13,064 nt of DNA from Candidatus Chlorohelix sp. Lineage in GTDB: Bacteria > Chloroflexota > Chloroflexia > Chloroheliales > Chloroheliaceae. The position numbers and the translations under genes were made by a program. The stretch lies in assembly GCF_037138995.1 (NCBI RefSeq), contig NZ_JBAXHI010000063.1, positions 1 to 13,064 of the forward strand. The letters are read 5' to 3'. The notes under the pieces are model-generated. The model was not told the DNA's origin. It did no database searches and saw nothing but the letters and a program-made list of their open reading frames with translations. Shown in pieces: positions 186-13,064 of this stretch. Numbering within the stretch: the stretch's first letter is position 1; every line of letters starts with the position of its first letter.

Positions 186-360
186 TTATCGCAACCCAGA
201 GGTTGCTCCTACAAAGCCCGAACCCTGTACGAGCGACATCTGGGTCGCGATTTCTCGCCCTTTTATTTATTTGTTTACTTGATATTTACCATAATTTAAT
301 TAGATAATTTAATCAATTCGCTCTATAATATTTAAGGATTGTAAAATGTATGTGCTATAA

Positions 361-933
361 AGAGATTATAAAGGTTACAGTGGGCTAGAGTCTGAAAAGC
401 ATCAGTGGTGCTGGGCGCATTTAATTCGGGATTTCAGGCGAATGAGTGAGCGAGCAGGAGGAATATGGGGCGAAGAGGCTTTGGAGTTAAGTGGGTAGGT
501 ATTTGAGGAATGGCGGGAGTATCGCGAAAGTGAAGGGGAAATGAGCCTGGCGGAGTTGAAAGCAGCCTTGGGGTCAATTAGAGCTGACTTCAAACAACTC
601 TTAAAAGAAGGAGAAACGCACCCTGATAGGGCGGTAAAGAGTTTGAGCAAAGAGCTAAACAAAGCCGAGGCTAGTTTGTGGGTATTTAGTGAGGTGGTTG
701 GGGTGGAACCGACCAATAATGCCGCCGAGAGAGCTTTGCGACCTGCGGTAATTTGGCGAAAGACCTGTTTTGGGTCTCAGAGTGAAGGTGGGTTGCGGTT
801 TGTGGAGCGGATGTTGACGGTGGCAGCCTCCCTCAAGCAGCAAGGGCGAGATTTGATTGAATTTATAACTCAGGCTCTTCGGGCCAAATGGTTTGGTCTG
901 CCTGTTCCTAGTTTAGTCCAAGCTTGTGCCTAG
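361..933 (+). pseudogene. IS66-family transposase (TnpC-like), C-terminal ~190 aa only. 5'-truncated and interrupted by an in-frame TAG at 496-498.
   Basis: The translation contains …DYKGYSGLESEKHQWCWAHLIRDF… and …EPTNNAAERALRPAVIWRKTCFGSQSEGG…SLKQQGRDLIEFITQAL…, which match the conserved IS66 TnpC motifs GY.GY / CWAH.RR.F and DNN.AER.IRP..GRKN.LF.GS..GG…N..P..YL. The frame opens only at 361, directly after AT-rich non-coding DNA. The TAG at 496-498 splits the frame. The ORF track reports only the 541..933 piece. Confidence 0.6.
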
Positions 934-994: not shown

Positions 995-1822
995 TCAACC
1001 TTCATCTTCCTCAGTCGGGATAGTGGTGTCGTTGTCAATAACATTATCATTCGTAGTAGCAACTAGATTATCAGAGTCAGAAGTATCAGTAACGTGATTA
1101 ACTCCAGCTATAATCCAGCCTACACCCTTATTGGGAAAGTGATCCAACTGATTCTGCACTTGGCTGCCCACACTGGCATTGACCGAAGCGTCTAAGGGTC
1201 CTAAGTTCTCTAAATCATCAGTTCCCCCGAACTGTCTATCTATCTTATGGTCAAGTTGCTGATTTTTTTCTAGGGTTTCGTTTGTTTCTTTTTCGTACAA
1301 GGCTCTTAAATTGTTGTTACGTGGCAATTGCTCATTTATAGTCAGATTTTGACCATTTTCTATACTTTCATTATAGTAACCCACCTTTTTTTGAGCTTCG
1401 GCTTTTTGATAGTCCGTCCATGCCTGTTTGTCCTTTACGTTCAAAACAAAAGCGGCAAAGCTCTCTTCATTTTTTCTTAGGTTAGCTTTTTCTTTTTCTT
1501 CCTCTGTTGGTTCATCCATACTGAACACTACTTCGTCTCTATCGGCATCAGTTATTATGGTAGGGTTTGCTTTGTCCTGCTCTTCGGCTTGCCAAATTTG
1601 AAAGTTTGCCCGGATTTTATCCGGGTCTTCAAAAGTATTATTAATATTGTCCAAAATACGTTTCTGAAAAGCGGGATGAACACCTGCTTCTTCTAGGGAG
1701 GCAATAAATTTTTGCTTTAGTTGTGTACCTGTATTAGCATCTCCAGGGATTTGCAACTTTTCTTCTTCACTGAAGCAAGAATCATCTTTATCCTCATCCG
1801 ACTGTTCATAACGTTTCTTCAT
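995..1822 (-). CDS. Highly acidic hypothetical protein (~275 aa, D/E/N/Q-rich, no recognisable domain); last gene of the operon.
   Basis: Long ORF. The preferred start is the internal ATG at 1822 (MKKRYEQ…), which sits 3 nt after the TAA stop of the upstream gene (1825-1827) with GAGGA 5 nt upstream. The track's longer start at 1897 would overlap the upstream gene by 73 nt. Composition is strongly acidic. Function unknown. Confidence 0.6.
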   Translation of the reverse strand: MKKRYEQSDEDKDDSCFSEEEKLQIPGDANTGTQLKQKFIASLEEAGVHPAFQKRILDNINNTFEDPDKIRANFQIWQAEEQDKANPTIITDADRDEVVFSMDEPTEEEKEKANLRKNEESFAAFVLNVKDKQAWTDYQKAEAQKKVGYYNESIENGQNLTINEQLPRNNNLRALYEKETNETLEKNQQLDHKIDRQFGGTDDLENLGPLDASVNASVGSQVQNQLDHFPNKGVGWIIAGVNHVTDTSDSDNLVATTNDNVIDNDTTIPTEEDEG

Positions 1823-1824
1823 TT

Positions 1825-4800
1825 TTATCCTCTGAGTATGGCTGCTATTAACATAAATATACCAAGTACCAGATCCAGTGGTAGGGTAATACACCAAAGC
1901 AAAAGTATCCCTATACCCAAGAAAAACGAAGCCAGGATTGAACGTGGTATAACTTCAAATGCGATTGGTACTGTCATAGGTGGCTGTCCACTGAGTTGTA
2001 TCTGTATCGGAATAATCTGATGACCAGGCGGGCGCAGTGATCTTACATACCCGCTAGTGATAAAAACTCTTTCCCAGATAGTGGTTTGTAGTGAAAAAGA
2101 ATAATTTAAAGTTTGACCACCAAAAGAGGCAGTTGGAGCTAAGATGGTGCTAAAAGAAAAGCCTTCCTGCCCAGGATTTTGTACCGTAACAGTGGTGTAA
2201 CCACCCTGCCCATTACCGTCGCGGCCCATATTTAAAAGTGTTAAAGTTCCGGTGATTATATCGCCTGTGCGTATTGTTGACTGATAATTCAACTTTGCCT
2301 GAATAGACGAAGTTGGTAAATTCGTGTCGCAGTTGCGCAGAAATATCTCTACCACTTCATTTTGATAAAGCTTATTCATATGGGCATCACTACCAATATA
2401 CTGATTCTGCTGCAAGGATTTTGAGGACATTATAGCTTGCTGTTTCAGACGTTCGTTGCGTAATCCGTACTCAAACCATCGAGCAAGTTCACCAGAGGAA
2501 AGATGATGGGGAATCTCGTTCCAATGGCAACGATCTACCGCTGCGATAAAATCTCCCAGTGTCGAGGCTTGTTCGGGTGGGGCAGTAAACTCAAATGGCG
2601 CTCTGGCTTTGATGTTGTATTGCTGTGGTAAACTGGCGACCTCCGGCAGTGGTGTGGCAGGTGGCGGAGTGCTGGTAGGTAATTGCTTATTATAATCGGC
2701 ACGTAGCGCAGGATCCAGCAAAATTCTTTCGGCTTCCTGTAAATACGCCAGCTTACGATTTGCATCATCCTGATCCTCTGGAAAGGGGGAGGTTTGTTGC
2801 TCTTGAAGCTGTTGGCGGGTATGTGCAATGCGTTGGCGAATGAAGTGTTCGCTGGCATCACGTTCTGCCTCGATAAGTTCATAGTAGTTACAAGCCGGAT
2901 TAGATGTAGCTGAGAGTGGCTGCGCTATTGCTTCTGGTGGTGTTTCTACACCAACTATAGAGGCGCGGATAGAGTCTCCATTCTTTCTGATTTTATCTTG
3001 CAGCTCTGTGCGAACATTCGCCAAATTTTTGCTACAATATTCTTCTATCATCTTTTGCGCTTCTTGTGTTTCAGGATCTATATAACTAAAATTGGTTATT
3101 GACCTCCATTCGTCAGGGGGGTTGTTTTTATATAACTTATCCCTAAGCTTATTGGAAGCTGCCAACCCGATTCCCTTGATTATTCCCAATGTTAAATAGC
3201 AAACTATGACCGCCACTAACGAGAAAGCACCTGGAGAATAAGTATAATAAGAATAATGGGGGTGTACAGCTGTATTAAGAGATGCGGTTGCTACCCCAAC
3301 CACTATCATAGGAAACAAAAAGCCTAGCCATGTTGGAATTGCCAGAGTAGCCATGTTTCCTATGCTGAAAAGCGTATATGCAAGCAATCCAAAGAGTAAA
3401 CTACCGGGTATTTCGAGCCATTTATAATTTACCATGTCAAAAATCGCAGCGCTTACACCAACAATGACTGCTAAGACCATGCCTATTACCAAGTTAGCCC
3501 AGCCAAAAGTTAATCCCCAGCGTTTTATGGCGTAGTTAGGGCTATATTTTTCCGGTACTATTTGAACCGAAATTGAAAAGGGATAATTACCAGAAGGTGT
3601 TTCCAACAAAAGTTTGAAATCATTGTAGCGGCTGTTATAGCTCAACTTTGAGCTATCTATTTCAATCATCAAAACAGTATCGCCCTCAATAGCAATACTA
3701 TCCAAACCTCGTACCGAACCGTCTGCATAGCCTAAACGAACTGGACGTTGCGTATTGGTACTCCGAAGAGTACCGTAGAAATAACCACGTCCCTGCCGAG
3801 CAATTTTCAGCAAGCGGTAAAATGGTTGGCGTGTGCGATCTAATGGGCCTAAATTCAGCGCTCCAGTCGGTTGAAACTCTCCTTCTAATCCCATAGCCAA
3901 TAATGGTTGGGGATGAGGTAACATTGGATTAAGCACATGAATAACTTGCTCCAATAATATCCGGCTACTGGAACGGGAATTTCGAATGAGGTCAGCCACG
4001 TTGCGGGCTATGATTCCATCTACCTGTTGCAGCCACTCTACTAGGATACTACCTCCTGGGCTTCGCAAGAGATAAACGGCTTCTTGTGCAGTGCTATCTG
4101 CCAAAACCGAAATTTCTTGAGCGGATGAAGCATAGCGACCTGATCCTAGAACTAGAAGAGGCTTACAATTGAGAGTACGGAGTGGTGCATGCTCCATTAC
4201 TAGCCACCAATAAAAACGGTGAAGGGTAAAACTCCAGTCATTATTGCACTGCCCGACGATTTCTAGGAAACGCTTGCGTGCTATTGCATCTGCTACCCCA
4301 TAACGTAGCCACCCATCCATGTTACCATTACTGCACGCCTGTAAAGCATCTTCCCAACTTTCGGGAGCCATTTGCACCAAATCTACTAGGTCAGCGGCAC
4401 TGTGTATGCCAAGTTGCAAATTACCTATACTGGCTTTAGCCAACGTTTGATTGTATTGTTCGCGTTGTTTAGGGTCTAACAGTTTTGGCAACAACTGATC
4501 CAAAAAACGAATCTTTTCCCTAGCACGTTGCGCAGTCAGGGCATCCACACTTTCGGCAGTTTGGTTTAGAGTTGCGTAAATGCGGCTGTAAGCAGTTTTT
4601 ATTTCTTCTGCACTGGCAGAAGGATTCACACTTAGAATCTCGTAGTAATTACGGGCATGCTCCATCTGGTCGAGTAGCTTGCGCCCGTCTATGTGCTGGA
4701 AGTTATCACCATAACGATGCACGGCTTGCCCGACCCCGGTTTCATGTAAACCGCCTAAGCCGGACTGGTTAAGACCGCCCAAATAACCTTGCCCATTGGA

Positions 4801-4833
4801 AGGTTCCTCAGGTAGCGGATAGGTTGTATTCAT
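1825..4833 (-). CDS. Large polytopic membrane protein (1002 aa) with two J-domain-like modules lacking HPD, a central ~4-helix TM bundle and a C-terminal TM hairpin.
   Basis: J-like module 1 is aa ~60-131 (nt ~4441-4656): NYYEILSVNPSASAEEIKTAYSRIYATL…AREKIRFLDQLLPKLLDPKQREQYNQTL. J-like module 2 is aa ~648-718 (nt ~2680-2892): NYYELIEAERDASEHFIRQRIAHT…ANRKLAYLQEAERILLDPALRADYNKQL. Both follow the J-domain helix I-II and helix III patterns (YYEILGV…EIKKAY… / …AYEVLSDP.KRA.YD), but neither has HPD. Hydrophobic segments lie at aa ~438-558 (nt ~3160-3522) and aa ~966-1000 (nt ~1833-1936). A P/T-rich linker is at aa ~719-735. SD GGAGAGGAAG ~10 nt upstream of the ATG. Confidence 0.8.
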   Translation of the reverse strand: MNTTYPLPEEPSNGQGYLGGLNQSGLGGLHETGVGQAVHRYGDNFQHIDGRKLLDQMEHARNYYEILSVNPSASAEEIKTAYSRIYATLNQTAESVDALTAQRAREKIRFLDQLLPKLLDPKQREQYNQTLAKASIGNLQLGIHSAADLVDLVQMAPESWEDALQACSNGNMDGWLRYGVADAIARKRFLEIVGQCNNDWSFTLHRFYWWLVMEHAPLRTLNCKPLLVLGSGRYASSAQEISVLADSTAQEAVYLLRSPGGSILVEWLQQVDGIIARNVADLIRNSRSSSRILLEQVIHVLNPMLPHPQPLLAMGLEGEFQPTGALNLGPLDRTRQPFYRLLKIARQGRGYFYGTLRSTNTQRPVRLGYADGSVRGLDSIAIEGDTVLMIEIDSSKLSYNSRYNDFKLLLETPSGNYPFSISVQIVPEKYSPNYAIKRWGLTFGWANLVIGMVLAVIVGVSAAIFDMVNYKWLEIPGSLLFGLLAYTLFSIGNMATLAIPTWLGFLFPMIVVGVATASLNTAVHPHYSYYTYSPGAFSLVAVIVCYLTLGIIKGIGLAASNKLRDKLYKNNPPDEWRSITNFSYIDPETQEAQKMIEEYCSKNLANVRTELQDKIRKNGDSIRASIVGVETPPEAIAQPLSATSNPACNYYELIEAERDASEHFIRQRIAHTRQQLQEQQTSPFPEDQDDANRKLAYLQEAERILLDPALRADYNKQLPTSTPPPATPLPEVASLPQQYNIKARAPFEFTAPPEQASTLGDFIAAVDRCHWNEIPHHLSSGELARWFEYGLRNERLKQQAIMSSKSLQQNQYIGSDAHMNKLYQNEVVEIFLRNCDTNLPTSSIQAKLNYQSTIRTGDIITGTLTLLNMGRDGNGQGGYTTVTVQNPGQEGFSFSTILAPTASFGGQTLNYSFSLQTTIWERVFITSGYVRSLRPPGHQIIPIQIQLSGQPPMTVPIAFEVIPRSILASFFLGIGILLLWCITLPLDLVLGIFMLIAAILRG

Positions 4834-4861
4834 TTATGAAAGGCTTCCTCTCCAAAAATAA

Positions 4862-5173
4862 CTATGAATCCCAGCCCATTTGTTTTCTGATATGCTGGTG
4901 ATACGCTTCCAAAGAACCATACTCCTTGTTTATACGGCGCGTATTTTCCTCTATCGCGTCTAATTCTTTATTCCAGGCTGAACCCCAGCCCTCATCAAAG
5001 CGGGGTATAGGGTGTTCTGATGGGTCGAAGCCAGAGTCGTCCCAATCTCCCTTCGGTGACACACCATAATCGTTCGAGGGTTCAGGATCCGTTTCCAACT
5101 TCTCGTCTTCTGTTATTTCCTGCTCTAACGGTTGGTCTGAAATCTGGTCGTCTTGATCTTCCTGCAAATCCAT
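4862..5173 (-). CDS. Small, highly acidic hypothetical protein (103 aa).
   Basis: ORF with a strong SD (AAGGAGAG, plus 5178-5185) 4 nt upstream of the ATG. It sits 18 nt after the upstream ATPase gene and 28 nt before the next gene. Strongly D/E-rich. No recognisable domain. Confidence 0.6.
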   Translation of the reverse strand: MDLQEDQDDQISDQPLEQEITEDEKLETDPEPSNDYGVSPKGDWDDSGFDPSEHPIPRFDEGWGSAWNKELDAIEENTRRINKEYGSLEAYHQHIRKQMGWDS

Positions 5174-5191
5174 AGAACTCTCCTTTTACAA

Positions 5192-8100
5192 TTATTTGGG
5201 AGCTGAAGACTCTTTCTGAGTACTAAATTCCACCATCAAGATTTCGAAAGCACGCGCGTGATAGTCTGACAATAACGTTTTTACTTTTAAAGCATCTTGC
5301 GGGTTGTCTTCCAAGTAAAGCGCACCCATATAAGCTTGAGCGCAATAGCTACTATTCAATTGGAGCATACTAGATGGTTCGGTCAAGTTATAACCCATCT
5401 GTGCAGTTACTCGTTTGATAGCTTTCCCATACTCAGGCCAAACTGAGCTAGGCAAACCGTCCGGTTGGGTGCTTTTAACAGCTTTTGCAAAAGCGATCAT
5501 AAACTCCTGACGGGCAAATTTTGGCAAAGATTTGATCAAAGCCTGAAAAAGACAGTGTCTGGAAGCATTCCAAACGGAACAATGCGTGCAGGTTGGATAA
5601 GGCGCAACCCCCGATTTACCGGGTGTGGTTTTGGGTTGGGGTGCTGCTGGAACAAAAGGTAGGTAACTGCCAAAACTGTGGTCGGGTAGCTTCGTGGCTG
5701 TCAAGCTACGAATACCTGAGTCATCAATAATTGCCAATTTGTTCAAATCATCTATAAGATTGGGCACACCTAGATGAACCGGTCCGAAGGCGCTACCCAC
5801 CAGCAAATGTCCGGTTTGAAGGTTACGAGCATAATCAGTTTGACGTTCATCCAGATTGAGCAACTGACTGTACAATTGGAAACTGTCGGGGTCCTCCAAC
5901 CGATGCATCAATTTCAAATTGCTATTGCCAATAGCTCCTTGAATAAGATTTACCGGCATCTGTTCGGCTATGATAATGCCTTCGCCAAAGCCCCGTACTT
6001 CTGCCAATAGGTTACTGAAGTCTTCACCCGCTGCTCCTTGGGGACTAGCATGGTCCTGGTTAGCCTGGTTATGCCGAGCCATTACCCGGTGCGCTTCTTC
6101 AACTAACGTTACATGCAACTGTTCAGGACGATGGTGTTCAATATACTCGCTGACCAGAACTAGCAGCATACCCATAATCAAGGCTGTATCCTGAGGGGAA
6201 CCAACCCGTCCTATTTCCATTATCACCGGACGTTTCATCATATCTCCGATCTCTATCGAAGACCGTTCCACATTAACCACGCTCCCGGCAGTAGCTATCA
6301 GATCGCGTATGCGAATTTCCGTGGCTTGCTCAATACTGCTCTGGGTTTCTTTGCCGTATTGAAGAGAAGCAGTTTCATTTTGTAAAGCAGCGTAAAACTC
6401 CGTAAAGTTCGGGGCAGGTGGGCTGTCCGGACCTCCCTTGCCTGTTTCAATATTCCAGCCCTTGTTCTCGTAACACTTGCGTAGCGCTGCCCGGTAAATG
6501 GCAGGAAGTGGGTCCCACATTGTAAAAGCGGCATTAAAGCAGCGCATCAGACGACTAATATGCTGTTTCAATAAGACCTTGTCTCCTACTGCAAAGGGAT
6601 TGAAGCGGAATGGTGCAGTAGTTTCATCTCCCAAGGTAAAAACCAATAGATCGAGACAAATAGGTCGACGTTGCACCTCATTCCCAAAATAAAATGCAAA
6701 CTGCTCATTACTCAAGCCATCCAGATTAGCTAGGCTGCGGTAATCCGGTTTGTCAATTGGATAAATCACCAAGAAGGGAATACGATATTTAAGCCAGAGT
6801 TGGGATAGCAGATAAAGACAGGTATTGGTTTTGCCGCTGCCGGTTGTGCCAGAAATCAGAGTGTGGCGAGCAAACTGACTCCAGGGCAGTCCAAAATCTT
6901 CGCCTGTGGACTGACCACGGTGAATAATGTTGCCCAATTTTACACTGTTTTCAATGAGAGAAGACCCCTCTTGCTTTGTCTGTTCATAGCGTGGGGCTAC
7001 AAACGGCTCATCTTTCACTACTACACCAGCCATAAACCCGCTGGCAGGTGGAACAGGTAGCCGAAAAGCGCCGCAGGCTTCTGTGGCAGTAACAATGTAG
7101 CGCAACCGCTCCAGACCAGGCGCTGAAAGGGTAGCCCCCCAAGGGTACTGTTCAAGATAGCGCAAGTTATTGAGTGCAATAGCATGATCGTTGGTTTTTA
7201 CCGGGTCGAACAACTGCCACTGGGTGGGGTAGTCATTTACAGTATTGTTCATACACTCGGAACCGAGTGCTTCCGCTACCGCAGCAGGTGCGCTTTTTTC
7301 ACCGGCAATTTGGATTTTCAGCAAGAAAGTATGGTTTTGTTCTTTTACTAGTTGCGTGTAAACCCAACGTCCTACCCTAGAGCGAAAGACCAGATAAGCG
7401 TTATCGGTGGTAGCTCTTATTCTGTCTTCTCGCTCTAGCACCCTTGTCATGTCATCAAAACGCTGGGCTGCGCCGTTGAGATAAAGGATTTCATCGGCGT
7501 AGAGTGAGGTAGGACGCAAACAAATACTTACCACAGTTCGCTCTTTTTGAGTCGCAAGAGCTTCAAAAAATCGGCTCATCGCACTGAAATCCAGCGATGG
7601 AACCAAAGGATGAACAATGTAATCACCCACCTCCTCCCGCCGTCCTAACCCCATAGCGCTGGTGCGAATCGGTAAGTCCTCAAACTTGCGAATTTCCAAC
7701 AATGTTCCTGGCTCTTTGAGGGCTGCGTACCAGTTAGCGTCCCCAAAAATTTCAAGAAAAGAAGCTTTGTCTGTCAGGGGTTTGAGAGGATAATTAAAAG
7801 GATCCTCAAGAGGGAAATTAGCAGAAAATTTAGCCCACAAGCGCAAAGAGACATCTCTAGCAGTCTTATAATCCGGGTCAAAAACTTTACAAACAAAGGC
7901 TATCCGTATTTTCCCCAGTTTGCCGGGAATAGTACTCGGTTGTTGGATAAAACGTAACTCGTAAGTAGCTTGTTTCTCGCGAAAGGTGGAAATATCATAG
8001 ATGAAACGAATTTGCCGTTTTACAACTTTTCCAATTCTGGAGTCGGCAAAGTCGTTACCACGAAAGCTAGGAATAAAAGGAACTTCGGCTGCCCAAAAAA

Positions 8101-8206
8101 TATGCCAGCCATCAAAGGGTTGGTGTTGTACTCCTTTTTTATCGGCATAACCTGTTTCTATATAGGCAGCTTGTTTTACTTCGTATAGGTAAGGTGTGCT
8201 GAGCAT
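5192..8206 (-). CDS. HerA/FtsK-superfamily P-loop ATPase (1004 aa) with a ~450-aa N-terminal domain of unknown function and a C-terminal Cys/His cluster.
   Basis: Walker A TLISGTTGSGKTNT at aa 450-462 (nt 6827-6850 encode SGTTGSGK). Walker B HVTLVEEAHRV at aa 698-708 is the hhhhEEAH form typical of HerA/DUF87-type ATPases. A sensor-like IIIAEQMPVNL…NSNLKLMHRL follows. A single P-loop domain spans aa ~430-830. No N-terminal TM segments. C-terminal CTHC-x7-HC at aa 873-885 could bind zinc. Confidence 0.8.
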   Translation of the reverse strand: MLSTPYLYEVKQAAYIETGYADKKGVQHQPFDGWHIFWAAEVPFIPSFRGNDFADSRIGKVVKRQIRFIYDISTFREKQATYELRFIQQPSTIPGKLGKIRIAFVCKVFDPDYKTARDVSLRLWAKFSANFPLEDPFNYPLKPLTDKASFLEIFGDANWYAALKEPGTLLEIRKFEDLPIRTSAMGLGRREEVGDYIVHPLVPSLDFSAMSRFFEALATQKERTVVSICLRPTSLYADEILYLNGAAQRFDDMTRVLEREDRIRATTDNAYLVFRSRVGRWVYTQLVKEQNHTFLLKIQIAGEKSAPAAVAEALGSECMNNTVNDYPTQWQLFDPVKTNDHAIALNNLRYLEQYPWGATLSAPGLERLRYIVTATEACGAFRLPVPPASGFMAGVVVKDEPFVAPRYEQTKQEGSSLIENSVKLGNIIHRGQSTGEDFGLPWSQFARHTLISGTTGSGKTNTCLYLLSQLWLKYRIPFLVIYPIDKPDYRSLANLDGLSNEQFAFYFGNEVQRRPICLDLLVFTLGDETTAPFRFNPFAVGDKVLLKQHISRLMRCFNAAFTMWDPLPAIYRAALRKCYENKGWNIETGKGGPDSPPAPNFTEFYAALQNETASLQYGKETQSSIEQATEIRIRDLIATAGSVVNVERSSIEIGDMMKRPVIMEIGRVGSPQDTALIMGMLLVLVSEYIEHHRPEQLHVTLVEEAHRVMARHNQANQDHASPQGAAGEDFSNLLAEVRGFGEGIIIAEQMPVNLIQGAIGNSNLKLMHRLEDPDSFQLYSQLLNLDERQTDYARNLQTGHLLVGSAFGPVHLGVPNLIDDLNKLAIIDDSGIRSLTATKLPDHSFGSYLPFVPAAPQPKTTPGKSGVAPYPTCTHCSVWNASRHCLFQALIKSLPKFARQEFMIAFAKAVKSTQPDGLPSSVWPEYGKAIKRVTAQMGYNLTEPSSMLQLNSSYCAQAYMGALYLEDNPQDALKVKTLLSDYHARAFEILMVEFSTQKESSAPK

Positions 8207-8255
8207 CTCTTTTATTCCGCCTACTATGTAATAGTTTTGATTAGCCGCATTTGTA

Positions 8256-9626
8256 TCAAGACAGGCGTGCCTCTAGATATTCGATTACTTCCCGTATTTC
8301 ACTTTCAATTGTCCACTCTTCCGGGTCTAGCAAGGTACACTCGATATTTGCCGACTGATTTTGTCCCTCTACCAGCACTTTTTGTAGAATAGGTGGAACT
8401 GCCGGGTAATCGGAGCCACATAACAAGCATACATAAGCTTGTCGCCCAGAAGAACGTAATTTGAAGTTTACTTCCACCAACCTTTTACCGGTGAGCATGC
8501 CGTTTGGACTGCGTTCCGGGGCATCGTTCGCATCAAGCACATAACTTAATTTTTTCAGCCGGGTTATTGCTTGCACAAAAGAAATACCCTCAGATTTTTC
8601 AGTCGGTGTACTGTTGAAAGCATTTGCACTGAAAGGCACTTGACCAGAGTCCTGTTGGTTTGTCTCAGCGCCAGTAGGCTGGCTAAAACCTCCAGGCGAC
8701 TGGGCATACCCGGTACCCTGTGCCGGTTCAGTTGGCAGATAGTGATTTGGCGCGGGTTGGAAAGCGTTAGGGGCATATTGGTTAGGCATAAAACGGTTTA
8801 CTGGAGCATTAAGATAATCCATACCGCCTCCGCCCATTTGCTGAATAATCTGGGGAGCAATTGCTTGGACATTTTGTTGACCATAGATAAGACTACCGTA
8901 AGTTATTGGAGCGTCGTAGGTAAGATCAATATGCTCACGAGTACCGGCAGCTTGCTCGGTAGCGGTACTAATGGTATTGGGTTGCTTGATCTCAGCTATA
9001 GTAATGTGTTCAACCAGTAAGCCAATGGAATATAAACGAGAGTCTTCGGTCAATGTGCTACGAATGAGGTGGTCTACGTCCACACGGCTAAATAACAGGT
9101 CATGATAATCACAGCGCCCAAAAGCTCGGCGGGTAGCCTGAGTAACACAATCCCGCAACGTTTTAGGAGCCGAAAAAGGGTTACTGCGGATGAAGCGATC
9201 TACCCCAGAATCGCCCCGTACACTCAGCACTTTGTTATCTACCCGAAAATTAACATTAAGGGTTATGGATAACTCGATAGGTTTACCGGAACGTGGCTCT
9301 TGACCATAATGGTTGGTTCTGCCAGTAAATTCATTGTGTACCGCATTAAATTTATCAGCAATCTGAATGCTTTCCTGCCGAGTATTCACAAGGACGAAGC
9401 GAATCTTGGAGTGAAAACCTGGTTTGGCTACACGATGACAGCCTGGCGGTAGAATAGCCCACAATTGATGATTTACATAAACCACCCCTGCCGTATTAGG
9501 TTCGATTTCAACCCCAGCGTTATTAAACAACCAAGACCAAAACCCAACTTCGTTAGTCTCGTCCCGTAAAATTAATACCGGTTCGGAGTTGTATGAGGGT
9601 GAAGGAATATTAGGATAGTTGCTCAT
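8256..9626 (-). CDS. Fusion protein (456 aa): N-terminal SPFH/band-7 (stomatin/prohibitin-like) domain, low-complexity G/Q/P/N/A-rich linker, C-terminal UBC/RWD-like (E2-fold) domain.
   Basis: SPFH-like, aa ~35-216 (nt ~8979-9524): VEIEPNTAGVVYVNHQLWAILPPGCHRVAKPGFH…IELSITLNVNFRVDNKV…TLRDCVTQATRRAFGRCDYHDLLFSRVDVDHLIRSTLTEDSRLYSIGLLVEHITIAEIKQP. This aligns with the HflK/stomatin pattern V.EGE.GVV.RFGK…L.PGLH…V.VD.VV.YRV.DP…TLR.V.G….ELL..R..I…L…WGI.V..V.I.DI.PP. Linker aa ~255-345. E2-fold, aa ~346-456 (nt ~8259-8591): FVQAITRLKKLSYVLDANDA…GRQAYVCLLCGSDYPAVPPILQKVLVEGQNQSANIECTLLDPEEW. Compare UBC …GG.F.L.I.FPEDYPFKPPKV.F.T.I.HPNI…G.ICLDIL…W. The HPN triad is degenerate (QNQ). A Cys is present in the ECTLL position. 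Strong SD AAGGAGA (plus 9636-9642). Confidence 0.75.
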   Translation of the reverse strand: MSNYPNIPSPSYNSEPVLILRDETNEVGFWSWLFNNAGVEIEPNTAGVVYVNHQLWAILPPGCHRVAKPGFHSKIRFVLVNTRQESIQIADKFNAVHNEFTGRTNHYGQEPRSGKPIELSITLNVNFRVDNKVLSVRGDSGVDRFIRSNPFSAPKTLRDCVTQATRRAFGRCDYHDLLFSRVDVDHLIRSTLTEDSRLYSIGLLVEHITIAEIKQPNTISTATEQAAGTREHIDLTYDAPITYGSLIYGQQNVQAIAPQIIQQMGGGGMDYLNAPVNRFMPNQYAPNAFQPAPNHYLPTEPAQGTGYAQSPGGFSQPTGAETNQQDSGQVPFSANAFNSTPTEKSEGISFVQAITRLKKLSYVLDANDAPERSPNGMLTGKRLVEVNFKLRSSGRQAYVCLLCGSDYPAVPPILQKVLVEGQNQSANIECTLLDPEEWTIESEIREVIEYLEARLS

Positions 9627-9657
9627 TAACCTGAATCTCCTTTTTCTTTAGCCAAAG

Positions 9658-11211
9658 TTAAACACGCAATCGAATTTCACCTTGTACACTGCGCTCATAT
9701 TTAGGCGCTTCCGCTACTGCTTCCAACAACCCATCAGCCCGACAGCGAATAAAGACATTGACCTCGGTCTGGGCTGGTAAATTAGGTAAATCGAACTGAA
9801 GCTCCCCTATAGTAATACACTGGGACAGTTCCGGTGTGTCACCTTGTACCAGAGAAATAACTGCCCCACCAGGGGTATTAGTGTGGTATTGGCGACTAGA
9901 CCAGTTTTGCATGGGCAGTGGGGTGCCCCTTGATAAAATTATGCTGTTAAAGTCCGGCCCATTCGGTCTGGAGGCTACTACCCCGATTGAATAAGGCAAA
10001 ATATCACTCACCTCTAGTCCGCCCAATTCATTACGTACAGCCTCACTTACTCCACCGAGGCGACCTTGGCGACCCTGACTATCCTGTTTGCTTTCTTCTT
10101 CAACTTTGATTTTGCCTGCCATCAATGCGGCACCATGCGCCACTGCTTTATCCGGATTTAGAGCGCTGTTAACTTTCTCTTTGCCAAACTTTCCGCATAG
10201 TCGTTCCCTTACTAAGGGAATACGGCTACTTCCTCCTACCAATAAAACTAGGTCGATTTGCGAAGTCGAAAGTTGCGCCTTTCCGATAGCTTGATCCATC
10301 TTTGTTTCTGCTCGAATAAGCGCCCCCTCAATCAGGCTGTTAAAAGTATCTCGGTTGAGATTTATCTGGTAAGATCTTCCCAACAAATTCAGTCGTAGCG
10401 TTGTTTCATGCCGATTGTGACCGCTCAGCTCTACTTTAGCCTGCTCTGCCCGGCGGCGCAGCTCAAAAAATTCCTGAGGGCCAAAACTGCGACGATCTAC
10501 CTGATGTTGAGAAGCCAGTTGTTGGGCGATATAGCCGATAATAGCTTCATCAAAATCTTTCCCCCCCAGTCGGTTATCGCCATCAGTTGCGAGTACCCGT
10601 ACTCTCCACCCACCGCTTGTTCCGGGTTCCATTCTTAAAATAGTCGCATCGAAAGTGCCTCCTCCTAGGTCATAAACTGCTACATTTTGAGCTACAGGCT
10701 TACGTCGCGCGGTATAATCCAGCGCGGCAGCCGTTGGTTCCGAAACCAACATTATAGAGTTGAACCCAGCTTTTTCCCCTGCTTTACGTGTACGCTCTTT
10801 CCCGCATGCGGTCATATTGGCGGGTACTGTAATAACCACCTGCTCTACAGGTTCATTTACTTCAAACTCTGCTGCTATTTTCAAACCTTTAAGGATTTCG
10901 GCGCTAATGTCTTCCGGTCTATATTGCTGATTGCGAAACTGTCGGACATATTGATCATTTTGATCACCTATCCTGCGTTTTATAAATTCTTCTACTCCTT
11001 TGGGATTAAAAAAACCAAGCTCAACAGCTTCCTGTCCAACCAGAATACGATTTTGGGCTTCATCGAAAAAAACCACGCTTGGCGTTGTATCCTGTCCATT
11101 GACAGATATAATCTCAGGCTTGCCCAGATCGTCTAGGCGTGCGATAGCTGAGAAAGTTGTGCCTAAATCAATACCTACGATCAAAGTTCTACCTCCTAAG
11201 ATTAAGTTCAT
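9658..11211 (-). CDS. Hsp70-family ATPase (517 aa): full actin-like nucleotide-binding domain plus beta-sandwich substrate-binding domain, with the helical lid essentially absent.
   Basis: Hsp70 signatures are present: IVGIDLGTTFSAIA (phosphate-1), VYDLGGGTFDATIL (phosphate-2), LVGGSSRIPLVRERL (adenosine), LVSEPTAAALDY. The C-terminal aa ~400-510 (VSDILPYSIGVVASRPNGPDFNSIILSRGTPLP…AVISLVQGDTPELSQCITIGELQFDLPNLPAQTEVNVFIRCRADGLLEAVAEA) aligns with DnaK SBD-beta (DV.PLSLGIE…IPTK…V.I.V.QGER…N..LG.F.L.GI.PAPRG.PQIEVTFDID.DGIL.V.A). The protein ends ~10 aa after this, so there is no SBD-alpha lid. Confidence 0.88.
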   Translation of the reverse strand: MNLILGGRTLIVGIDLGTTFSAIARLDDLGKPEIISVNGQDTTPSVVFFDEAQNRILVGQEAVELGFFNPKGVEEFIKRRIGDQNDQYVRQFRNQQYRPEDISAEILKGLKIAAEFEVNEPVEQVVITVPANMTACGKERTRKAGEKAGFNSIMLVSEPTAAALDYTARRKPVAQNVAVYDLGGGTFDATILRMEPGTSGGWRVRVLATDGDNRLGGKDFDEAIIGYIAQQLASQHQVDRRSFGPQEFFELRRRAEQAKVELSGHNRHETTLRLNLLGRSYQINLNRDTFNSLIEGALIRAETKMDQAIGKAQLSTSQIDLVLLVGGSSRIPLVRERLCGKFGKEKVNSALNPDKAVAHGAALMAGKIKVEEESKQDSQGRQGRLGGVSEAVRNELGGLEVSDILPYSIGVVASRPNGPDFNSIILSRGTPLPMQNWSSRQYHTNTPGGAVISLVQGDTPELSQCITIGELQFDLPNLPAQTEVNVFIRCRADGLLEAVAEAPKYERSVQGEIRLRV

Positions 11212-11574
11212 TTATTCAGGAACTTACTTCAACCATTCCATCGGCGTGATTTCCTTATCCGTCAGTACGTAGGGTTTCGTACACAATAAGGTCTATTTCC
11301 ATTATGATACAGCTAAACGTTACTGAAAGCTTATTTCCAGTTGAATTGGGAAAAAACGACTCGTACTAACTTGAAGTTACTTGATAAATATTACACCAGA
11401 ATTGCAACTAAAGTTTGTAGCATTTTAAACATTAGTTTGAGCAATTTTCGGCACATATTTGAGATTTGGTCAATCTGCAATACGTTGCATGTTCACCTGT
11501 TTGGTGGCTTAACCCAGATAGGATTATTAACAAACTGACCTTGACCGAAATAAGCTTAAATTACCCGTAACCGC

Positions 11575-12882
11575 TCAAACCATTTGGATAAGTTGCTCCC
11601 AAAATGGGGTTATATCACGATTTATCAAATCCTGAGCTTTTGGTAAACACGCTGGGTTCAAGGTAATTTCTGAGATAGAATTCTGCCCAGTAAAAACCTT
11701 TAGAATCTGAGCTTGCGCTAATATCCCCACTATTTTTTCAAAATCGGCGTTACGAACCTTCTCCTGTAAAATCCCTACTGATATTGTTTTACTACCTACC
11801 AAACCATAACCTAGCAGGTAAATTAGAAATTTACGGATGAATTCCGCTTTTGGATGAAGAGTAACGGGTACAACCAGCGGGTTTTCTGTTAGAATAATCT
11901 CCTCTACTACTTTTTTTGTTTCTTCGCTTTCTTCTGCAAGAACTACTTCAGTTTCTGAGGATGAGTCATTTATTAAAGTGGTATACACCACGATGTTAAT
12001 AACTGGTTTTAAGCAAGTAACCTGTGTTATGGAACAAGTTAGAGTAACCCCCTCTGTAGTAGCAGTAGAGCTAAACCGATTTGCCAGAACCTCTTGCACA
12101 ACATTTGCTACCTCACGTGACCCTGTGTATTCTCCTACCAATTCAATGATGCTCAGGTTATTCCAAATTGAGGGGCGCAAGTCAGAAATAGACCAGTATT
12201 CCTGACCAATAAGACTAAAAATCCCGTCATACACTAGGTTTCTCAGGTTTTCTAGAAAGTTCTTTACAACAGGTATAATGTCCTGAAGTTCATCTGGAAC
12301 CGGGAGCAAAAAAGCATAGCCTGTTGGATTTTCGGTAGGAGCAATCACTAACTCAAGATGCACTTCATCATTTGTTATCAAATCTTGTTGTTGGGCAAGT
12401 ATCTCCATATAAGACTGTAACTGAGCTCCACGGTTCTCTTGTGCCACTAGCAAGATAGAGTGATAAGATGCAGGTAGAGATTGTAATATTGTGTCACGGT
12501 TCTGTGCAAACTGTTGGTAATCATGTAATTTCCTCTCAAGTTCCGGGTCTAAATGCAACAGTTGCTGTCTCTCCGTTTCCAGAATTGACTTCCTAAGAAA
12601 TCGTTGACCAGTGACAATAAGATTATCAAGGCAGTCCTGCATAGCTAATTTTAATTTTTCCTGCTCTTCCTGGTTAAGAGTTACGGTTTGTATAGCAAGT
12701 TCCTGCTGCAAACGAACTATATGTGCTTCTTTTATCCTCATGTCACGCTGTAATATTTCAAACTGTGCAACCAAAGAACTCATTTTTGACTGCTCTGTTT
12801 GCAGTTCAATTTCGAGCGATTCCATACGTTCGTGCGCATTATTTCTCAGTAAAGTAAGATTTTCACGTAAAGAGTTAGACAT
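11575..12882 (-). CDS. Coiled-coil protein (435 aa): N-terminal ~130 aa Q/E/L-rich predicted coiled coil, C-terminal domain unrecognised.
   Basis: Long ORF. The ATG abuts the TAG stop of the upstream partial ORF (TAGATG junction). Heptad-like L/I/Q/E periodicity in aa 1-130 (nt ~12493-12882). No catalytic motifs recognised. Confidence 0.7.
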   Translation of the reverse strand: MSNSLRENLTLLRNNAHERMESLEIELQTEQSKMSSLVAQFEILQRDMRIKEAHIVRLQQELAIQTVTLNQEEQEKLKLAMQDCLDNLIVTGQRFLRKSILETERQQLLHLDPELERKLHDYQQFAQNRDTILQSLPASYHSILLVAQENRGAQLQSYMEILAQQQDLITNDEVHLELVIAPTENPTGYAFLLPVPDELQDIIPVVKNFLENLRNLVYDGIFSLIGQEYWSISDLRPSIWNNLSIIELVGEYTGSREVANVVQEVLANRFSSTATTEGVTLTCSITQVTCLKPVINIVVYTTLINDSSSETEVVLAEESEETKKVVEEIILTENPLVVPVTLHPKAEFIRKFLIYLLGYGLVGSKTISVGILQEKVRNADFEKIVGILAQAQILKVFTGQNSISEITLNPACLPKAQDLINRDITPFWEQLIQMV

Positions 12883-12885
12883 CTA

Positions 12886-13064
12886 TACCTTCAATTCTAC
12901 TGGAATATCACCCATTAAAGTGGTTATCGGTTCCGCAGTTGGTATTCTAAATGAACCAAGTTGACGCACTACTGTTGCAATCAAACTTTTCAGAGAATCA
13001 TAGGCTAGTCTTAGAGTAATTCTGAAAACTAGGTCAAGGCGAAAGTTTACAAAGCCTTTTGAAA
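12886..13064 (-). CDS. 3' end (>=59 codons) of a further upstream operon gene that runs off the window.
   Basis: The minus-strand frame is open from the window edge to the TAG at 12883-12885 (…FRIPTAEPITTLMGDIPVELKV*). The stop is immediately followed by the ATG of the 435-aa gene, consistent with translational coupling. No start in window, so function unknown. Confidence 0.4.

Follow-up and report, generated by a model that had tools for sequence, protein, structure and literature searches.

A Chloroflexota gene cluster combining a lidless Hsp70, HPD-less J-like domains, an SPFH-RWD protein and a VirB4/HerA-type ATPase: a predicted conflict system of an apparently undescribed family

A stretch of 13,064 nucleotides (nt) from Candidatus Chlorohelix sp., phylum Chloroflexota (contig NZ_JBAXHI010000063.1; referred to below as the window), carries a run of minus-strand genes encoding, among others, an Hsp70 paralogue, an SPFH protein, a translocase-type ATPase and a membrane protein with J-like domains. 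Six of these genes, labelled C to H, are predicted to form a membrane-associated conflict system in which two ATPases control a toxin, with an intracellular and defensive role, and we give this reading about an even chance. The cluster belongs to a family that appears to be previously undescribed and to be found almost only in Chloroflexota. The invariant core of the family consists of an ATPase of approximately 1000 amino acids (aa), which has a conserved N-terminal domain, a hexameric translocase domain of the VirB4/DptH/HerA type and a C-terminal domain containing cysteines; a soluble SPFH protein that ends in a non-catalytic domain of predicted RWD/E2 fold; and a strongly charged disordered protein. 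The architecture appears to be a new kind of system made from known domains, with a predicted function, and the window holds an atypical singleton variant of it.

The minus-strand genes were labelled A′ to H from the open reading frame (ORF) listing and frame translation, and their proteins correspond to MEI7557024–MEI7557030. Successive genes from A′ to H are separated by 0, 363, 31, 49, 18, 28 and 2 nt, and AGGAG-type Shine–Dalgarno (SD) sites are present upstream of D, F, G and H. A preliminary description of the window had reported eight minus-strand genes, tightly packed at gaps of 0–49 nt apart from one of 363 nt and provided with SD sites, and our listing and translation give the same layout. 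That description had also treated the eight genes as a single unit. The packing is consistent with this, but A′ and B have no counterparts in the sister loci, where the operons begin at the Hsp70 gene, and we therefore take the conserved unit to be the six genes C to H.

We examined 27 unique genome or metagenome loci around homologues of the ATPase (E), nearly all of them from Chloroflexota. The ATPase family comprises at least 441 full-length homologues, at approximately 40–46% identity. An SPFH-RWD gene, the counterpart of D, lies on the same strand and within 10 kb of the ATPase gene in 18 of the 27 loci. In L025, L026 and L027, SPFH-RWD paralogues follow the ATPase gene, those of L025 being recognised from their Pfam matches and those of the other two from homology; five further loci are cut by the end of the contig or have J-like genes filling the sequence up to its edge, and in L029 no SPFH-RWD gene was recognised. 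The first gene after that for the ATPase encodes a protein containing 19–31% Asp and Glu in 22 of the 26 loci in which it is readable. It is basic (19–24% Lys and Arg) in L005, L021 and L024, which are of the E1/E2 type described below, and L029 is the other exception. The core of ATPase, SPFH-RWD protein and strongly charged disordered protein recurs in at least 27 genomes.

The genes that accompany this core vary. In the Hsp70 type, seen in 12 loci, they encode an Hsp70 and one to nine membrane-anchored paralogues, each consisting of a J-like domain, a double zinc ribbon, a coiled coil and a C-terminal transmembrane (TM) segment. The order is lidless Hsp70, SPFH-RWD, the one to nine J-like paralogues, ATPase, acidic protein, metallopeptidase and small helical protein. 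The E1/E2 type comprises five loci, L005 (Oscillochloris trichoides DG-6), L018, L021, L024 and L030, with Chloroploca included, and has the order TM-anchored RWD-like proteins, CBASS-like E2 (PF26395), Prok-JAB, ThiF E1, SPFH-RWD, ATPase, basic protein and a UPF0102/PD-(D/E)xK nuclease-fold protein. The terminal effectors of this type are the UPF0102/PD-(D/E)xK nuclease and a domain resembling contact-dependent inhibition (CDI) toxins. A third type has the order ATPase, acidic protein and two SPFH-RWD paralogues. One Hsp70-type operon is followed directly by genes for E1, Prok-RING, Ubl-E2, ubiquitin-like (Ubl), JAB, FHA and vWA proteins. Because sister operons either swap the Hsp70 and J-like genes for E1, E2 and JAB genes or adjoin a full E1/RING/Ubl-E2/Ubl/JAB set, the family as a whole is linked to ubiquitin-like conjugation.

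Some further features of the sister operons are recorded here. A metallopeptidase with an HExxH motif, of the SprT-like/DUF6782 kind and with an acidic tail, is encoded in 13 operons, as judged from weak Pfam matches. The peptidase is approximately 195 residues long and has the invariant motif (T/S)(I/V)(I/V)HE(G/D)RHA(Y/F/L)Q; it is found at 13102–13707 in L006, at 13464–14042 in L008 and in 11 other loci. It is usually followed by a helical protein of approximately 100–120 residues with an LDW..REP motif, and the two could represent an effector plus a partner or immunity protein. Loci L006, L009, L010 and L052 contain tandem arrays of the J-like/double-zinc-ribbon/coiled-coil/TM genes, reaching seven to nine genes. 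Adjacent copies in L006 (7124–8068, 8052–8996 and 8980–9861) are identical over their first approximately 85 residues, implying recent duplication or gene conversion. No ubiquitin-like protein could be recognised in the E1/E2/JAB-type operons L005, L018, L021, L024 and L030.

Within the Hsp70 type, the window represents a derived form. The genes for Hsp70 (C), SPFH-RWD (D), ATPase (E) and acidic protein (F) follow one another as they do elsewhere, and the window differs from the typical operon in that the J-like modules are fused into one polytopic protein (G), encoded after the ATPase gene and lacking zinc ribbons, and in that an HNH-type effector (H) takes the place of the peptidase.

Protein C (9658–11211, minus strand) consists of an Hsp70 nucleotide-binding domain, a linker and a β-sandwich substrate-binding domain, and matches PF00012 (HSP70) with an E-value of 8.6e-84 over profile positions 1–484 of 599. 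Alignment to DnaK shows that the catalytic residues D8, K70, E171, D194 and T199 are all retained, within the motifs GIDLGTT, IKRRIG, SEPTAAAL and YDLGGGTFD. There is no α-helical lid, since the protein stops at aa 517, just past the β-sandwich; the Hsp70s of the sister operons, to which C is 36–38% identical, likewise have no lid and are approximately 514 aa long. Neither the window nor any sister operon contains GrpE, as judged by Pfam.

Protein G (1825–4833, minus strand; 1002 aa) is the sole membrane protein of the cluster according to a TM scan, and is built of two repeats of a J-like domain, a soluble region and a TM block. The first J-like domain, J1 (aa 62–128, nt 4450–4650), matches PF00226 (DnaJ) at 30.7 bits against a cutoff of 27.8, and the second, J2 (aa 649–718, nt 2680–2889), was recognised by its match to PDB J-domains, which align with G at aa 61–129 and aa 644–716. 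J1 and J2 align with each other (E 2e-4), and both give matches to the J-like domains found at the N-termini of zinc-ribbon membrane proteins in sister operons. The TM blocks occupy aa 439–560 (nt 3154–3519) and aa 959–1002 (nt 1828–1959). The assignments of Hsp70, J-like and SPFH domains in the preliminary description all lie above the curated Pfam thresholds, and G is, as it had stated, a J-like membrane protein without the HPD motif: aligned to DnaJ, J1 reads LNQ at this position, and J2 also lacks H-x-D. The J-like domains of sister operons mostly have variants of the form H-x-(D/N)-P (HHDP, HRNP, HQNP and one HPDP), and in every J-like domain the HPD motif has been either lost or changed.

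The Asp of the HPD motif is contacted in DnaK by R167. The corresponding residue of C is Met, and Arg is absent here from all nine of the full-length operon Hsp70s that were read, the other operons having Gln, Thr, Lys, Glu, Cys or Asn. The loss or alteration of HPD together with the loss of R167, in Hsp70s that keep their ATPase catalytic residues, points to co-adaptation of the operon Hsp70s and their J-like partners through a non-canonical interface.

The ATPase E (5192–8206, minus strand) is a translocase of the FtsK/HerA superfamily with three regions. Its N-terminal domain, of approximately 420 residues (nt 6947–8206), contains many invariant Arg, Lys, Glu and Pro residues in an alignment of 120 sequences, and has no Pfam or PDB sequence match. 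The P-loop translocase domain (aa ~421–820, nt 5747–6946) belongs to the FtsK/HerA/VirB4 superfamily and has the Walker A sequence GTTGSGKT (nt 6827–6850) and the Walker B sequence VEEAH, both invariant in the same alignment. The C-terminal extension (nt 5195–5746) is helical, its helices appearing in the structure model, and has conserved cysteines in a CxxC...C pattern, of which C885 and C955 are at least 90% conserved. The protein also carries the conserved segment GAFRLPVPPESGYMPG. Between the N-terminal and ATPase domains, at aa 376–397, the segment EA.GAFRLPVPPESGYMPGV is almost invariant in the 120 homologues and is a candidate partner-docking motif.

The preliminary description had called E HerA-like. 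At the level of the superfamily this is correct: a PDB sequence profile matches HerA (4d2i) with E 6.5e-7, the DUF87/HerA match falls marginally under its threshold (23.1 against 23.2 bits), and structures of HerA-effector anti-phage systems appear among both the sequence-profile and the fold matches. The structure model, with a pLDDT (predicted local distance difference test) score of 85, is closest in fold to VirB4 and DptH, with a sequence identity of just 15–16%, and Foldseek ranked full-length TrwK/VirB4 first, over approximately 900 columns with a low TM-score. The term is therefore valid for E at the superfamily level only.

Protein D (8256–9626, minus strand) contains an SPFH/Band_7 domain (aa 40–227, nt 8946–9509), which matches PF01145 with E 2.2e-7 and 31.5 bits against a cutoff of 23.6. 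This leads into a linker rich in Pro, Gln and Gly, not into a long helix, and a hydropathy scan found no hydrophobic or TM segment in D or in five sister proteins. Beyond the linker is a domain of approximately 110 residues (aa ~345–456, nt 8259–8594) with a predicted RWD/UBC (E2) fold. A profile of this domain family matches the E2s 3we5 and 4bwf (E ~0.005), FANCL and the GCN2 RWD domain; Pfam RWD matches four of six family members, with a best E-value of 6e-5; and hhalign aligns the domain to the RWD-like proteins of the E1/E2-type operons with a probability of 97.3% and E 2.4e-11. The structure model of D, made from a two-sequence alignment, has a pLDDT of 35 and is unusable, so that the fold assignment comes from sequence profiles.

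The preliminary description of D as an SPFH–E2-fold fusion thus agrees with the predicted fold, but the domain contains no HPN motif and no catalytic Cys that is conserved across the six members, and we therefore regard it as RWD/UEV-like rather than as an active E2. D alone has a Cys within NIEC-TLLDPEEW (aa ~425–438), 18 residues after YPAVPP and 8 residues before a Trp that is invariant in the family, a spacing that we take to match that of the catalytic Cys and Trp in canonical E2s; the five sister proteins have no Cys at this position. Direct comparison with the neighbours of ATPase homologues gives a full-length alignment of D to the sister SPFH-RWD proteins at approximately 22% identity. 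Word-seeded, phmmer (1.84 billion representatives) and profile searches found only D itself and one Oscillochloris protein.

The two remaining genes of the unit encode an acidic protein and a predicted effector. Protein F (4862–5173, minus strand; 103 aa) consists of 28% Asp and Glu, and matches, by position and composition, the acidic disordered protein encoded after the ATPase gene in sister operons. Protein H (995–1822, minus strand; 275 aa) has an acidic N-terminal half followed by a predicted HNH-type (ββα-metal) domain at aa ~127–226 (nt 1145–1444), with the motif DH-x6-GG-x5-NL-x-PL-x3-VN, present in H as DHKIDRQFGGTDDLENLGPLDASVNASVG. All of its Pfam matches are below cutoff (Endonuclea_NS_2 at 0.004–0.016, and HNH and HNH_5 within 0.004–0.15, HNH itself at 0.05–0.15), and it has no sequence match in the PDB. 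Residues 127–226 align at 37% identity (E 6e-8) with the C-terminal end of ARZXY2_4893, a hypothetical protein of 2076 aa encoded at 8786–15629 of plasmid pZXY24 of Arthrobacter sp. ZXY-2 (CP017425.1; L053). The two have in common the motif DHxID.Q.GG.D.L.NL.PLD.SVN.S.GSQ, and the motif DHKIDRQFGGTDDLENLGPLDASVN of H is kept in the Arthrobacter homologue. ARZXY2_4893 ends with a glycine-rich hydrophobic segment followed by the H-like HNH-type domain, and the next gene matches Tdi1_C (8e-9) and SUKH immunity proteins; the two genes look like an unannotated polymorphic toxin–immunity pair. Since the combination of homology, motif and immunity-type neighbour is the signature of a polymorphic toxin tip, H is predicted, with moderate confidence, to be an HNH-fold nuclease toxin. 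In the window itself, H is not followed by a gene of the immunity kind.

The last gene had been described as featureless, which its acidic tail and predicted HNH-type domain contradict. Likewise, the preliminary list of partners lacking from the window is correct for GrpE, NurA, Sir2, E1, Ubl and deubiquitinase, with an active E2 absent as well, but its statement that there is no nuclease is probably wrong because of H. The probable presence of a nuclease effector, the six-gene unit and the family-wide link to ubiquitin-like conjugation sharpen the earlier interpretation, which is partly supported.

At the upstream end of the cluster, A′ (12883–13064, minus strand) is the 3′ end of a gene, 59 codons and a stop, cut at the edge of the window, and its stop abuts the start of B. 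Gene B (11575–12882, minus strand) encodes 435 aa with an N-terminus that is heptad-rich by eye, and forms a singleton cluster. B has no match in Pfam, NCBIfam, PADLOC, PHROG or the PDB, and A′ likewise matches nothing. No counterparts of either gene are found upstream of the Hsp70 gene in any sister locus; their membership in the system is uncertain, and the missing operon start to which the preliminary description referred may fall outside it. Extension upstream, which had been proposed, is prevented by the assemblies: the contigs of three independent assemblies all end approximately 270 nt upstream of B, suggesting that there is a repeat on this side of the cluster too.

The AT-rich gap of 363 nt between B and C (11212–11574) is probably the promoter region of the six-gene unit. 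A promoter and terminator scan found one promoter-like match on the minus strand, at 11473–11444, and no terminator-like site in the gap, the scan overall being no better than on shuffled sequences. C probably starts at TTG 11184, on the grounds of an AGGAGG 7 nt upstream and of the same call on a sister assembly; it would then be 508 rather than 517 aa long and the gap 390 nt. H starts at ATG 1822 (275 aa), in agreement with the NCBI annotation, and not at an overlapping TTG at 1897. On the downstream side, a truncated IS66-family transposase remnant (~360–933, plus strand) with an in-frame stop near 540 flanks the cluster and lies outside it; the ORF at 541–933 matches PF03050 with E 1.5e-8, and an IS66 gene is also called in L050. 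Beyond the remnant is a gene for a PAS/response-regulator kinase. Scanning the window for Rfam families, tRNAs and repeats gave no relevant result.

The family belongs to the accessory genome and has a patchy distribution. It was found in approximately 30 of 185,579 species representatives, a count limited by the search patterns used, and no relatives of the ATPase family were found in viral contigs. The flanks of the sister loci differ and show no synteny; they include several transposases and integrases and many housekeeping genes. The suggestion that the cluster is part of the accessory genome is borne out by these patchy, non-syntenic loci, some of which have transposases, plasmid-type genes or BREX/McrBC beside them. 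The gene-neighbourhood comparison that had been proposed shows that the core co-occurs and is patchily distributed, but enrichment in defence islands is weak. ParM-like, DnaA_N and FtsK genes lie near one sister operon, which suggests that it is carried by a plasmid or integrative element. An FtsK_SpoIIIE gene, separate from the ATPase gene, and an ALP_N gene occur approximately 8 kb away on a sister contig. Another operon is inserted between two paralogous URO-D genes. In L004, an Anaerolineae metagenome-assembled genome (JAHDWA010000030.1), the sequence directly downstream of the operon (14412–22997) encodes PglZ, a PD-(D/E)xK protein, BrxL and an HSDR_N protein, a BREX-like set, together with McrBC.

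The joint action of the six genes, its trigger and its direction, the nuclease activity of H and a defensive role are predicted as follows. G, which is polytopic and has two HPD-less J-like domains, would act in the membrane as a sensor or anchor, and would recruit the lidless Hsp70 C through a non-canonical J–Hsp70 interface. The SPFH-RWD protein D may scaffold the translocase E close to the membrane. On a trigger, for example phage infection or the entry of foreign DNA or protein, both ATPases would act. F and the acidic N-terminal tail of H would be remodelled or threaded, and the HNH-type nuclease domain of H would thereby be freed; alternatively, the ATPases might feed DNA or another nucleic acid to H. 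The presumed outcome would be DNA degradation and abortive infection.

In favour of such a conflict system are the tight co-directional packing, the recurring core and the apparent co-adaptation of the Hsp70s and their J-like partners. The exchange of Hsp70/J-like for E1/E2/JAB modules and the variety of terminal effectors are as in known conflict systems, one locus adjoins BREX and McrBC genes, and others lie near transposases or plasmid-type genes. HerA-family ATPases with effector partners are established anti-phage systems. Other predicted conflict systems likewise include Hsp70 together with DnaJ (PMC7159879; PMC11090510). Several points weigh on the other side. Defence-related ORFs make up only about 7 of 142 in the flanks of 26 sister loci, most of them from one locus, which is a weak enrichment. 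The window is itself an outlier, having no zinc-ribbon J proteins, SprT-like peptidase or small partner protein, and its SPFH-RWD homology to the sister loci is just ~22% identity. Among approximately 15 billion proteins there are no close relatives of B, D, F, G or H, apart from three 90%-identity relatives in the cluster of G. No role can be assigned to the N-terminal domain of E from Pfam or PDB matches, and the HNH call for H is made up of sub-threshold profile matches, one 37%-identical homologue and a motif. Finally, the homology to a toxin tip, the VirB4-like motor and the small gene after the peptidase would suit an export system equally well.

An apparatus of this kind, exporting toxins in interbacterial antagonism, would have a VirB4-like motor on an SPFH scaffold, with Hsp70 and J-like proteins keeping substrates unfolded and delivering them, acidic tails as export signals, and the terminal genes as toxin cargo with or without immunity proteins. 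In its fold E is nearest to VirB4, and its Foldseek alignment is to full-length TrwK/VirB4; the domain of H has its homologue at the C-terminus of a very large plasmid protein, whose gene has a Tdi1/SUKH immunity gene directly after it; the small conserved protein after the SprT-like peptidase could be an immunity factor; the effectors have long acidic tails, sometimes fused to them; and some J-like partners are polytopic. We nevertheless consider export unlikely. Most operons contain no other components of type IV or type VII secretion systems (T4SS, T7SS) and no obvious channel protein. Modules of the E1/E2/JAB kind typically serve intracellular regulation. Between operons, the peptidase and its small partner keep 35–40% identity and are not polymorphic, H is followed by no immunity-like gene in the window, and the family is absent from viral contigs and was not found on conjugative elements by scan.

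The preliminary description had offered two explanations, a conflict system and a membrane remodelling or quality-control module; we favour the former. As a non-conflict module, the cluster would use its SPFH protein as a scaffold (compare HflK/C–FtsH and erlin in endoplasmic-reticulum-associated degradation, ERAD), its ATPase for extraction or unfolding, the Hsp70 with membrane J-like proteins as adaptors, and a peptidase or ubiquitin-like tagging to clear damaged or mislocalised membrane proteins. SPFH proteins do scaffold membrane proteases and ERAD ligases (erlin/RNF170, gp78), and this precedent is joined by the SprT/Wss1-like HExxH peptidase of typical operons, the linkage of E1/E2/RING/JAB modules to the core, the intact catalytic residues and substrate-binding domain of the Hsp70, and the predominance of housekeeping genes in the flanks. 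What makes it improbable is that the loci are patchy and non-syntenic (approximately 30 among 185,579 species representatives, within the reach of the patterns searched), that the nuclease-type effectors of the window and of the E1/E2-type operons are unsuited to proteostasis, that up to nine diversified J-like paralogues resemble recognition diversity, and that mobile-element and BREX/McrBC genes are neighbours. The eight genes might also not form one system at all, being either a chance or recent mosaic beside an insertion sequence (IS) element or a decaying Hsp70-type operon with G and H as unrelated insertions. Counterparts of A′ and B are lacking elsewhere, F and H each form a singleton cluster, G clusters with only three 90%-identity relatives, the usual peptidase, small partner and zinc-ribbon genes are absent, and the cluster sits between an IS66 remnant and a contig break upstream. 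Against this, all the ORFs are long and intact, two of them exceeding 1000 aa, with 2–49 nt spacing and SD sites; G still has the family-specific J-like domain in duplicate; the family pattern of an acidic protein followed by an acidic tail plus effector is preserved in F and H; and the order of the Hsp70, SPFH-RWD and ATPase genes is the usual one. We regard a mosaic origin as quite improbable.

If the cluster is one unit, as the conflict-system reading supposes, it would represent a new architecture for conflict systems in prokaryotes, from a phylum in which defence has hardly been explored, and the Hsp70/J pair and the E1/E2/JAB module would be interchangeable regulators of the same core. 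Such an interchange bears on the evolution of chaperone-based and ubiquitin-based control of membrane-associated machines. The joint loss of HPD and R167 with intact catalytic residues offers a testable alternative interface between Hsp70 and co-chaperone, and the acidic effector tails beside an ATPase resembling a DNA pump suggest an unusual route of activation or export. More tentatively, and as a possibility that we rate well short of likely, the core could be a new class of membrane-proximal machine in which a peptidase or nuclease output is gated interchangeably by an Hsp70/J-like or an E1/E2/JAB module, a bacterial counterpart of the eukaryotic logic of SPFH scaffold, ubiquitin tagging, extraction ATPase, Hsp70 and SprT/Wss1-type protease, with an Hsp70–J pairing that dispenses with the HPD–R167 contact.

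The preliminary description had recognised no described system in this combination of domains, and our searches agree. PADLOC-DB v2 has no system model that fits the set of components: C, D, F and G are unmatched, and E is matched by generic ATPase models only (mad8, HerA, DndH and PbeA). Full-text searches of the literature, with subscription-only papers outside their scope, found no description of the SPFH-RWD and translocase core or of the cluster. A housekeeping DnaK/DnaJ/GrpE operon is ruled out by the absence of GrpE, lid, HPD and R167 and by the patchy distribution. The specialised Hsp70 paralogue HscC of E. coli provides a parallel, being a non-housekeeping Hsp70 encoded beside J-proteins, DjlB and DjlC, with the J-domain at the N-terminus and a membrane anchor at the C-terminus. 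DjlB and DjlC keep HPD, no SPFH, translocase or effector genes are known to be linked to them, and the window proteins reach no HscC-type model.

Among systems built around related ATPases, Sir2-HerA/Nezha, DUF4297-HerA and HerA-NurA resemble the window in having a hexameric ATPase of the FtsK/HerA superfamily beside a toxic or nucleolytic effector. Membership in any of these is ruled out, as the partner proteins are absent and the fold of E is closer to VirB4/DptH. For VirB4, the ATPase of type IV secretion, and DptH/DndH, whose C-terminal ATPase serves phosphorothioate-dependent restriction, Pfam finds none of VirB3, VirB6, VirB8, VirB10, VirD4, relaxase, DptF, DptG or dnd genes in the window or sister loci, and a T4SS or T7SS is ruled out by the lack of other components. 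The SPFH pairs HflK/C–FtsH, stomatin–NfeD and SPFH–PspA (YdjI/SamI) are similar in that SPFH is encoded with an ATPase, to which typical sister operons add a zinc metallopeptidase. D differs from these in having no anchor and no long coiled-coil or cage-forming region (coiled coil was not formally scored) and in ending in an RWD/E2-fold domain, while E is a P-loop translocase and not an AAA+ protein; there is no NfeD, PspA or FtsH, and the window is not an SPFH–protease pair. Polymorphic toxins reportedly carry C-terminal HNH-fold nuclease domains together with SUKH/Tdi1 immunity, as Zhang et al. are said to have described in 2011. The 37% identity and DH...GG...NL...VN motif of aa 127–226 liken H to such tips. 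H differs from them in being short and encoded on its own, in having an acidic N-terminal region, and in lacking an immunity gene after it.

Bacterial E1/E2/JAB conjugation modules have been described previously (Iyer et al. 2006, PMC1779556). Like CBASS type II (Cap2/Cap3), Bil and Bub, the sister operons carry a ThiF-type E1, a CBASS-like E2 (PF26395) and Prok-JAB, and D has a predicted RWD-like domain of the E2 superfamily. However, no cyclase, Ubl-target or phage-tail logic is evident, the SPFH-RWD and translocase core is foreign to those systems, and the window, having no E1, active E2 or Ubl, is not a member of CBASS type II, Bil or Bub. The likeness extends also to predicted conflict systems that contain chaperones. 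GAP1-N2 GTPase systems, predicted by comparative genomics, carry Hsp70, GrpE and DnaJ (Kaur et al. 2020, PMC7159879), and the CnuD protein of CoCoNuT type III is an Hsp70 with degenerate catalytic residues in a predicted conflict system (Bell et al. 2024, PMC11090510). As in the window, an Hsp70 paralogue, with or without a J partner, is placed in a multi-gene operon centred on an NTPase, and some of these Hsp70s lack parts of the canonical chaperone. Those systems are built on GTPases (GAP1-N2, McrB) and include GrpE, tubulin or HEPN proteins, whereas the window has no GrpE and combines an Hsp70 whose catalytic residues are intact with an SPFH-RWD protein and a VirB4/HerA-type ATPase.

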